Below are positions 41,987 through 44,424 of a stretch of 64,000 bases of DNA, piece by piece; position 1 is the first letter of the stretch, and each line of letters starts with the position of its first letter. The DNA lies in the NCBI GenBank assembly GCA_012295275.1, contig CM022677.1, forward strand, positions 26,350,001 through 26,414,000, read 5' to 3'. The notes beneath the pieces are model-generated. The model was not told the origin of the DNA. It ran no database searches and saw only the letters and a program-made list of their open reading frames with translations. Position numbers and translations under genes: made by a program. The stretch comes from Chrysomallon squamiferum. Its lineage: Eukaryota; Animalia; Mollusca.

Positions 41987-43595
41987 ATGACCGAAGCCGT
42001 GGCTAATCCAGAGTCCGGTGATGTTGCCATTAGCGACCATGATAAAGTGGTTTGCACTAGCATCCTGGATTCCCCCGTAGACGGCGCTGTTGAAAAAACT
42101 GTAGATGTTAAAAACAACGGCACTGGGACAGAAAGCCAAAAACATTTTCAACAACTTGGTTCTGGTAGTGTGTCTGGTAATGAAGAAAAAATGTCTTCCA
42201 ATCTTGGTCATGAAGAGTTAATTGAAGTAGCTGCTGCTGCTGCTGATAAGGATGTTGGTCGTGTTGGGTTTAAGGACGATGCTGCAGTCAGTAATGTTGA
42301 ATCTGTTGATGTACACAATGGTCTTGGTAATGTTAACTCTCAGAATACTGCTGTAGACAGTAACGTTGGTGATGTTGTAGACAGCAGCTGGTCACAGAAA
42401 GCTGCTGCTGATGATGATGTTGATGCTGTTCCTCCTCATGATCATTATTATGATGATGATGATGATGATGATGATAATGATGACAATCTGCTGCACCACA
42501 GTATGGAGAGCAGTGATTTCAAAAACTACTTAACACTTGGACACGAGATTGTCCGAAATGAAGAAACTGTTGATCTTCTTGATCTTTCTGCCCCCCCACC
42601 CCAAGAATCTGGAGACTTTAAATTCACAGACACACCTCAAACTGTAGCCTCCAGCTTTACATTTGACGGTCTGACACCAGTGAAAATAGACGATGTTAAT
42701 GATCAAATGAAGGACAGTGGTATTGCAGATAGTATCAGTTCCAATACATTTCCTGTTCATGGGATAGGTTCAGATCTAAGCCCTGACGGTATAGAAAATT
42801 CTACAAAGTCTGAGTCCAACTCTACTAAGACTGAGTCCAACTCTAAAAGACTGAGTCCAGTTCTGTAATGCCTCACTCTGAAGAAGTTATTACTGATTTC
42901 ACTTCTGTGCAATTACTCAACGAGAATGAATCAAATACTCAGAAACCCAGTTCAGAAGGTAACTACAGTGATGAGAGATCATCAAGCCAAGGTGATATTA
43001 ATAAAAAAGACACATCAACACACACAAAAGACCAAAATCATACAACGGAAAACAGTTCTGAAAAAGAAAATTATGGAAATGTTTCAGAAAACAGTATAAT
43101 CCAGAAGGGTTCAGAAAGTGGAAATGACCAAGCAGCTGTTGTCAGTTCTTCAGACAATCATTGTGAAGACTCTTCACTTCAGCAGCAAAAGATAATCAAG
43201 TGTGAAAGGTTTAGCAGGCTGGAATCCGTAGATTCCTCGGTTGGAGACGGCAGCGAACAAGGAAATAGTTATCTGGAAAACAGCACCTCAGAACTGTTCA
43301 GCCATGATGGTCAGCAGAGGTTTAACAGCCAGCAGGGCGTTGCTGGGGGTGTGGCTGGGGGCGTGGAAAGCAGTTTGAGACACAGAGGCCGGGTGCTGTG
43401 TGCGTGTGGTCAGTTTCTCATTGACGACCTGGGTGAAGGGGAAGGTGAAGGAGACTTGGTGTTCTGCGAAGGAGAGTTTCAGGAGGAGTTTGATGATTAC
43501 CATGTGGAAGGGTTTCACAACAAACACAGCAGAAAGGTCACTTTTAACGATTCGTCCTACAGTTCAGGACATTCTAGACATTTCCACAGAAGTGG
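41987..43595 (+). CDS. Large alternative exon (~536 aa, acidic, Ser/Asp-rich, probably disordered) splicing in frame onto the myosin V tail; 1-nt frameshift near 42845
   Basis: Two abutting non-microsatellite ORFs (293 + 243 aa); donor GG|GTAAGT at 43595 is phase 2, matching exon 44304. Confidence 0.75.
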
Positions 43596-44265
43596 GTAAG
43601 TTGAGGTGTTGCTGAGGTTACATTTGTTTTAACAGATTTATATCTATACAGATGAGGGGAATCTAGACATTTTCGTGAAAAGGGGGTAAGTTGTAATTTT
43701 TTTTTCAGATGATAGATATGTTTTTAATAATTATGTGTTGGTTCAGAAAGTTCTAGACATTTTGGAAAGAGTCGGATAAATCAACTTTTAGCTTGAATCA
43801 CAAATTTTAACTGTTAAAAACTCTTAACATTCGCGACTTTTAATGAAATCATACTTTTTCTGAGATTTATCAGGTCTGAAAAGTTCTTCCAATTTTCATA
43901 AAAGTAGGCAAGTTAACTTTTAAAAGCTTTGGGAGATTCTAGATTTTCTTAATCAAATTTTCACAGAAGTGGGTAAGTTTTTTTTAAATTTTAAACTTAG
44001 ATTCTTAATGCAGACAGGAAATTCTAGATGTTAAAACTGAAAAATCAGGTTTTTCTAGATTGTCAATCTGATGTAGCAAAACCACTGGATGTGAGCAGAG
44101 CACACATTTTATTGGTTTACTAGAAAATTGTATAATATTTAAGTTTATTTTCTAGAAATGATATAATAATGAATTTTTCTGTTACTTTGGAAAATTCTGG
44201 AAGCTAATTGTGTTGTGTTTCTTCAGGTTATAATTATAACAAATTATTATTTTTCAATTATTTAT

Positions 44266-44300
<35 letters not shown>

Positions 44301-44303
44301 CAG

Positions 44304-44424
44304 GTTACTGCAGTCACAGCTAGATCAGACAGAAAAAGAGAGTAAGAGAAAAGAGGAGGAATATTTGCAGGAAATAGCAGAACTGAAGAAAGAAAATGAA
44401 CGACAGCAAAAACTAATTGGCCAG
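44304..44424 (+). CDS. MYO5: Myosin V exon: LLQSQLDQTEKESKRKEEEYLQEIAELKKENERQQKLIGQ
   Basis: tgccag|g...cag|gtgaga; corresponds to myosin Va RLLESQL...ENNRQQQLLAQ. Confidence 0.95.

Follow-up and report, generated by a model that had tools for sequence, protein, structure and literature searches.

Can a class V myosin gene also give rise to a protein that keeps the cargo-binding tail but has no motor? The question is raised by a 64-kilobase window of the Chrysomallon squamiferum genome (64,000 nucleotides (nt); assembly GCA_012295275.1, contig CM022677.1, positions 26,350,001 to 26,414,000 of the forward strand), whose plus strand carries most of a class V myosin gene, the window start falling within the motor. 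Inside the largest intron of this gene (27534-44303 in window coordinates, which are used throughout), a first-pass annotation made from the sequence alone had noticed a GC-richer, coding-like stretch and had read it as the first coding exon of an internal transcript for a motor-less myosin V tail. Our analysis supports this reading and partly confirms the observation behind it. We found that RNA enters the giant exon from a non-coding exon, E1, in the same intron, and that motor-less tail proteins joined at the equivalent position are present among the gene models of other molluscs. A headless isoform very probably exists. The fuller reading, in which the internal exon E1 and the giant exon would yield a motor-less tail protein that serves as a static cargo clamp or motor brake, is the one we favor and consider probable.

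A giant acidic exon within the largest intron

The giant acidic exon, predicted to be the first coding exon of the long headless form, occupies 41973-43595 on the plus strand (1623 nt in the window, 1624 in RNA); its 5′ end is set by an RNA joint at 31056-41973, and its 3′ end is placed from the donor and from homologues. GC content in this region is 0.41 and 0.39 against 0.20-0.29 in the surroundings, and the two halves of its open reading frame (ORF) are the two longest high-complexity frames among the 71 open frames of at least 100 residues in the window, in agreement with the annotation. The splice signals that it had listed are also in place, with an acceptor, tccctttaag, ending at 41972, a donor, TGG/GTAAGT, at 43595/43596 and a TGA directly before the ATG at 41987. 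This TGA belongs to an ATG TGA ATG (41981-41989), a start-stop directly before the main start codon, which is also present in the loose ends of the RNA contigs. The predicted donor GTAAGT (43596-43601) stands in phase 2, as required by the exon at 44304, and reading through it gives a Gly and then a stop.

The claimed 536-residue, phase-2 ORF, however, is broken in the window. From ATG 41987 the frame meets a stop at 42866-42868 after 293 residues and is followed in another frame by 250 residues (42847-43599); 41987-43595 counts 1609 nt and is in phase 1, one short of phase 2. The break is a one-base loss at 42845 in the third copy of a 21-nt repeat (2.9 copies, 42800-42859). Five public runs were available, four of RNA from one study (X1-X4) and a fifth (X5) of a kind that is not stated, which covers introns throughout. 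The X1 and X3 contigs insert a C behind 42845, and all four listed RNA contigs that cross this position restore the frame (X1 record 7, 635 letters over 634 window positions; X2 record 15, 433 over 432; X3 record 20, 352 over 369; X3 record 22, 198 over 194). With the base restored, the ORF has 536 residues and is in phase 2 at the donor, as had been claimed. Because all listed crossing RNA contigs keep the frame, the break is most likely an assembly error, the alternative being a rare allele.

The remaining variation points in the same direction as the restored frame. Further listed length changes within the giant exon (-3, -9, +3 and -21) are all multiples of three, compared with one of six listed non-coding changes. 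Among 33 listed variants inside the ORF, taken from the 40 best-supported of 126 rows, 16 are synonymous, 17 nonsynonymous and none creates a stop; 17 fall at third positions. Read in the two other frames, the same variants give 7 and 6 synonymous changes and 1 and 5 stops, and random placement gave a mean of 10.4 synonymous changes, with at least 16 in 66 of 3000 trials. Coding constraint on the giant exon is weak but real.

We also observed degenerate copies of the 3′ end of the giant exon at 43572-43980, with further GGTAAGT donors at 43685 and 43972, the latter carrying the same 16 letters as 43585-43600; contigs of X1 and X2 touch 43950-43994 and then depart into sequence outside the window.

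RNA enters the giant exon from a hidden upstream exon

The 5′ partner of the giant exon, which the annotation had left to be determined from RNA, is E1, an exon that is non-coding in the myosin frame, extends from 30708 or earlier to 31056 on the plus strand (contigs of X1, X3 and X4) and ends in the donor ACA/GTCAGT. Its coverage begins at 30708 in X1, at 30786 in X3 and at 30755 or earlier in X4, with no loose letters before it in these three runs; the missing cover upstream of about 30670 was not used as proof of a transcription start. The joint 31056-41973, which uses the acceptor described above, was found in all four RNA runs, from the E1 side in X1, X3 and X4 and from the giant-exon side in X2. 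At 41966 the X1, X2 and X3 contigs diverge from the window sequence, and their loose letters map to 31030-31043. RNA enters the giant exon from E1, not from the myosin exon that ends at 27533, and the contigs continue past 42060 as far as 41973. Within E1, no ATG in frame follows the last in-frame stop. Because a TGA precedes ATG 41987 in the spliced RNA, the giant exon is no cassette in these transcripts, and translation of the ORF must begin at ATG 41987.

In X3, E1 is also joined straight to the tail exon at 44304, with 30 letters on the short side, and an X3 contig (record 24) begins exactly at 44304. This joint ties E1 transcripts to the myosin tail and means that the giant exon can be skipped. 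The first in-frame ATG of the skip form is at 47948, preceded by GCCACC, which we take to be a textbook Kozak context that the codons themselves may force. Three database proteins (P0045, P0048 and P0054) start at the Met equal to 47948, and may be partial models.

Two observations concern the surroundings of E1. Just upstream, at 30649-30676, three of the 10 TGACCT hexamers on the plus strand are clustered, two of them as a direct repeat with one spacer base, an arrangement that presumably resembles a nuclear-receptor DR1 site; the cluster is a possible promoter element. Downstream, the intron at 31230-33200 is covered by RNA at depth 3-38, with loose ends in X3 leading to outside sequence, which may reflect nascent RNA, DNA or repeats.

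The tail presumably shared with the full-length motor

The host gene is of class V. Haliotis myosin V, which has Myosin_head, IQ and DIL domains in Pfam, aligns exon after exon from 160 to 58725 in a tblastn exon map. The last tail exon matches solved tail structures of myosin Va, Vb and Vc (E values 5e-25 to 3e-20, 12 sequences), and its best named matches are from Haliotis, a vetigastropod, at 82-85% identity. The largest intron, which contains long tandem repeats, is flanked on the plus strand by the last upstream exon of the full-length protein (27344-27533; phase-2 donor; 86% identity to Haliotis myosin V 1378-1441) and by the shared tail entry exon (44304-44424; LLQSQL...; 69% identity to Haliotis 1441-1482), at which the distal coiled coil starts. 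These two exons are consecutive in the normal protein and can be joined in frame on paper. RNA contigs join 44304-44424 to 47909, the beginning of the remaining tail exons (47909-58728, plus strand, tblastn exon map), which encode coiled coil and the globular cargo-binding (DIL) domain. The motor and IQ exons lie upstream of E1.

Headless gene models in other molluscs

We compared 124 tail-bearing proteins, drawn from the best 120 of 533 matches to the last tail exon and 15 mid-length matches. Both flanking exons are present in 95 of them, 14 are without the entry exon and 3 have fewer than 40 residues before it, and 12 have the entry exon without the upstream exon and with at least 40 other residues before the junction. 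One of these 12, P0074, is a Ptychodera myosin of full length and was rejected as a headless candidate. The remaining 11 have no motor and are, among the proteins listed, all molluscan, and in every one the junction falls on the initial residue of the exon that corresponds to 44304. Their N-termini measure 383 residues in Patella caerulea, 345 in Littorina saxatilis, 471 in Biomphalaria glabrata, 620 in Pecten maximus, 928-1119 in four Mytilus species and 95-547 in Mya arenaria. Among the matches listed, none outside the molluscs and none from Haliotis was a headless model. Seven headless relatives were scanned against Pfam, and DIL was present while Myosin_head and IQ were absent.

Four species, M. 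galloprovincialis, Biomphalaria, Littorina and Pecten, have headless models whose tail matches that of the form with the normal upstream exon at 100% identity (517/517, 536/536, 519/519 and 513/513 residues). On this ground the two forms are isoforms of one gene. Identity to the full-length protein is lower for the headless copies of Mya (426/436 to 409/437), which may be paralogues; one contig of this species carries several headless tail models that are not identical (P0125, P0051, P0055 and P0049) and are possibly separate genes. Many of the headless models are RefSeq isoforms labelled fibrinogen-binding protein-like, autophagy-related protein 11, GRIP and coiled-coil protein-like, or uncharacterized. 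A 2138-nt contig that encodes 594 residues across the junction (P0160) reads like a transcript. The Biomphalaria N-terminus is also recorded as a bare 470-residue ORF (P0148) that ends at the junction residue and then a stop. This ending, which follows from reading through any phase-2 GTAAG donor, is common to P0148, the window and P0003, the relative of the giant exon described below, and the Biomphalaria model is nevertheless joined to the tail. A second motor-less model of Pecten maximus, isoform X4 (P0024, 600 residues), has a short leader of its own and starts at the preceding exon, which suggests that the tail region has more than a single internal start.

An acidic arm with conserved blocks

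A search with the C-terminal piece of the giant exon gave one match among 619 candidates, P0003 (579 residues, 61% identity over the piece), which was also the only match in a profile search of 1.84 billion proteins. P0003 is a single unbroken ORF across both window halves, with Gly-stop at the position of the window donor, so the test of conservation that the annotation had proposed turned out in favor of the ORF. Three blocks are conserved on the plus strand: an N-terminal block of residues 5-31 (41999-42079; 52% identity to P0003 1-27; score 77, where the highest of 2000 shuffles reached 49), a middle block of residues 168-210 (42488-42616; 51% identity to P0003 268-309; E value 8e-10 in a 13-sequence set) and a C-terminal block (43177-43596; 50% identity to P0003 447-579). 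We infer the link of P0003 to a myosin gene. Two metagenome contig scans found no relative, and an ESM Atlas search gave no usable match.

All arms are acidic (Asp plus Glu 16-27%, Lys plus Arg low), and in a charge-hydropathy plot all seven N-termini, together with P0003, are placed on the disordered side, with a tail control on the ordered side. AlphaFold2 gave the conserved C-terminal block a mean predicted local distance difference test (pLDDT) score of 32.7 from two sequences, a value that cannot separate disorder from a thin alignment. For the headless P0160 the mean was 49.6, with residues 1-83 below 50 and long helices past the junction at about 75-80; its cysteine motif did not fold in the model, which neither shows nor excludes a zinc finger.

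Short motifs recur in the arms. The Mytilus and Pecten arms have a common cysteine block at the exon end, and the C-terminal block of the window contains a CxC (43399-43407, plus strand) and an acidic-aromatic stretch. A CxC lies within the last 70 residues in five of seven lineages against 0.26 expected, for a motif picked after looking; the pattern hints at one ancestral exon. A common origin of the arms would rest on position, phase, composition and CxC, because the window arm shows no detectable sequence similarity to those of the named molluscs. The same block carries RKVTF (43531-43545, plus strand), which is RKVQF in P0003, and we take both to fit the RVxF-type pattern for docking of protein phosphatase 1 (PP1), RKVTF being a putative RVxF-like site. 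In excerpted text on such motifs, basic residues precede the RVxF-type sequence and acidic residues follow it (PMC3795061).

A model for a motor-less myosin V and the evidence that weighs on it

Myosin V globular tails bind Rab GTPases and adaptors and also fold back to inhibit the motor, and tail fragments of myosin V are routinely used in the laboratory as dominant negatives. In the mechanism that we favor, a promoter within the myosin V intron would produce a transcript with E1 as its first exon, and E1 would be spliced to the giant exon and the giant exon from 43595 on to 44304. The product would have about 1050 residues, 536 of them acidic and probably disordered, followed by about 514-520 residues of distal coiled coil and globular tail (by comparison with Haliotis), and would be without motor, IQ motifs and most of the coiled coil. 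Having the same tail as the full-length motor, it would share the Rabs and adaptors of that motor as binding partners and form pairs by way of the coiled coil; with no ability to walk along actin, it would either keep cargo where it is or compete with the motor for it. The acidic arm may act as a spacer that bears short docking motifs (CxC, the acidic-aromatic stretch and the RVxF-like site), and transcripts that skip the giant exon would encode a shorter form, tail only, from ATG 47948. The 3′ splice and the dominant-negative role are what we infer here; granted the headless isoform, a role as clamp or competitor is somewhat favored.

Several points weigh against this reading. The joint 43595-44304, with which the first-pass annotation completed its transcript, was not seen in the X1, X2, X3 or X5 contigs across that region. 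The only listed X1 contig that enters exon 44304 has 97 upstream letters absent from 41200-44480; it enters from another exon, probably the normal upstream exon. The E1-44304 joint comes from a single run and its 30 letters are below the tool threshold of 31. All run data are contigs, which cannot show start, strand or level, and the RNA is from one study; since the intron at 31230-33200 is covered too, cover alone proves nothing, and we relied on joints. The named headless relatives are automated gene models. The window arm has no significant similarity to the named molluscan arms (best E value 0.28), and RKVTF or RKVQF was not present in the other arms scanned. Three upstream ATGs, at 30746 (a 51-residue upstream ORF), 30817 (40 residues) and 41981, could limit translation. 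The hole in coverage at 43400-43950 was counted neither way: RNA contigs stop at 43338 (X1), about 43317 (X2) and 43247 (X3), and there is a G-rich repeat at 43335-43366, and an X2 contig that reaches E1 was missed in the second mapping.

The transcript and protein could be as we propose and the protein yet be an independent scaffold or tether with partners of its own, for instance a phosphatase or a membrane bound through the acidic arm, instead of an opponent of the motor. The three blocks kept between the window and P0003, the retention of RKVTF as RKVQF and the 536 extra residues, needless for a pure competitor, agree with this, as do excerpts of the literature in which headless Myo10 is proposed to serve both as scaffold and as dominant negative (PMC5725431) and the N-terminus of myorod is a phosphorylated regulatory part (PMC4410989). 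We nevertheless think it unlikely, in that the arms diverge past recognition while the tail stays identical to that of the motor, so that in a cell containing both forms competition could scarcely be avoided. The missing 43595-44304 joint, unseen in four runs, would also be expected if the giant exon were terminal and, with E1, encoded a stand-alone acidic protein of 537 residues nested in the myosin gene, with its stop just past 43595; P0003 is indeed recorded as a complete ORF ending at the equivalent stop. That ending, however, is what any phase-2 GTAAG donor would give, as in the Biomphalaria exon that is joined to the tail, and the window donor is a consensus one in the required phase. 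Neither AATAAA nor ATTAAA is present in 43597-44303, and E1 reaches tail exon 44304 in X3, which leaves the stand-alone protein improbable.

The upstream ATGs and the broken window frame could instead mean that the internal transcript is regulatory or poorly translated, either because these ATGs suppress the ORF or because the one-base loss marks a null allele of a decaying exon; the headless myosin XI transcript of maize gave no detectable protein according to the excerpt of PMC3935558, which also counts against our proposal. The frame-keeping length changes, the synonymous excess and the conservation of the start region and blocks in P0003 speak for a translated exon, and the window shows other local signs of misassembly (50836-51290); we consider this explanation very improbable. 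Hardly credible is that the stretch is a giant cassette exon of full-length myosin V, entered through the weaker in-phase acceptor at 42060 that the annotation had offered as its alternative, or a transposon-derived ORF. An AG does stand at 42059-42060 in the right intron, but entry there was not seen, the RNA running through it to 41973 and being joined to E1, and the position-equivalent mollusc models are motor-less. For both ORF halves and P0003, Pfam returned no family at the cut-off (sub-threshold matches for the halves only), and one homologue in 1.84 billion proteins is unlike a mobile element, in a check for which no repeat library was searched.

Four things had escaped the annotation: the break of one base, the exon upstream, the form that skips the giant exon and the spread of headless models across molluscs. 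A wider scenario, which we put forward tentatively and hold to be rather doubtful as a whole, is that the gastropod-bivalve ancestor evolved a switchable off-form of myosin V, in which an internal promoter and a skippable giant exon would yield either a bare tail or a tail on an acidic arm with a relic CxCxxC-type cysteine module. The arm would make the tail a static tether or signalling scaffold, which in the present lineage would dock PP1 onto myosin V cargo, and the trick of catchin would have been used twice, on myosin II and on myosin V. A natural motor-less myosin V retained in both gastropods and bivalves would add a new tier of regulation to the transport of cargo along actin, and mislabelled database entries would be explained as myosin V isoforms.

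Other features of the window

The tail gene itself looks misassembled at 50836-51290, with a true lesion as the alternative: exon 50692-50835 is without a GT donor, none of the three frames contains a stretch of about 24 residues (Haliotis 1592-1616), and exon 51291 has its start duplicated. At 15586-15687 there is a near-exact partial tandem copy of exon 15404-15535, donor included, which is either a duplication or an assembly artefact. A large complex tandem array occupies 54900-57650; its units measure about 70 and 92 nt, and within it the end of exon 54804-54980 recurs in partial copies. Early in the largest intron, two GGTAAGT donors with AGs close by (28045-28075 and 28130-28153) delimit possible micro-exons, the second of which has 24 nt and is open in phase 2.

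Comparison with known systems

Our literature search, judged by title and abstract start and with most subscription journals outside it, found no description of a natural headless animal myosin V, and headless myosin V sequences are already public as unremarked automated annotations. A close likeness in design is to catchin/myorod of molluscan catch muscle (Yamada et al. 2000, cited in PMC3912159; PMC4410989; both in excerpt), a unique N-terminus on a tail identical to that of its parent. The same arrangement is found in the gene models of four relatives, while in the window the 43595-44304 joint is unseen. Catchin comes from the myosin II heavy-chain gene and retains a filament-forming rod within catch-muscle thick filaments, whereas the headless form here derives from a class V gene and has a cargo-binding globular tail, and is no catchin; a sequence link between the two is not expected. 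The Drosophila myosin rod protein (Standiford et al. 1997, cited in PMC3912159, in excerpt) likewise uses an alternative start and has an N-terminus unconserved between related taxa, but it is a myosin II rod, and its N-terminus comes from extending the first rod exon in the 5′ direction instead of from a separate giant exon.

Outside the muscle myosins, the flailer mouse carries a Gnb5-Myo5a fusion that puts a foreign N-terminus on the myosin Va tail and is described in the excerpted source as cargo-binding, motor-less and dominant negative at 1:1 (PMC10644554). Our view that the headless form would act as a clamp or competitor follows from this outcome and from the identity of the tails. Flailer is a harmful mutation by genomic duplication, whereas the form predicted here would be a conserved natural product of the same gene. 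In plants, headless myosin XI (Arabidopsis HDK and a short maize O1 transcript) has coiled coil and DIL without motor or IQ; HDK is encoded by a duplicated gene of its own, the maize transcript yielded no protein, and the excerpt describes no long new N-terminus (PMC3935558).

In the excerpted account, headless Myo10 of the mouse, proposed as a natural dominant negative or scaffold, starts within an intron with a first exon that is all 5′ untranslated region and splices to downstream exons (PMC5725431). It is of class X, adds no new coding sequence and keeps its IQ motifs. The E1-44304 skip form is built alike, E1 being a non-coding intronic exon spliced downstream; no joint upstream of E1 was seen in three runs, in contigs that cannot show a start. 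The long form would add 536 residues. Class X tails consist of PH, MyTH4 and FERM domains, and the window tail is a class V tail with DIL. The headless form is thus the class V counterpart of catchin/myorod and headless Myo10 and a member of none of these groups, its host being of class V and its arm new.

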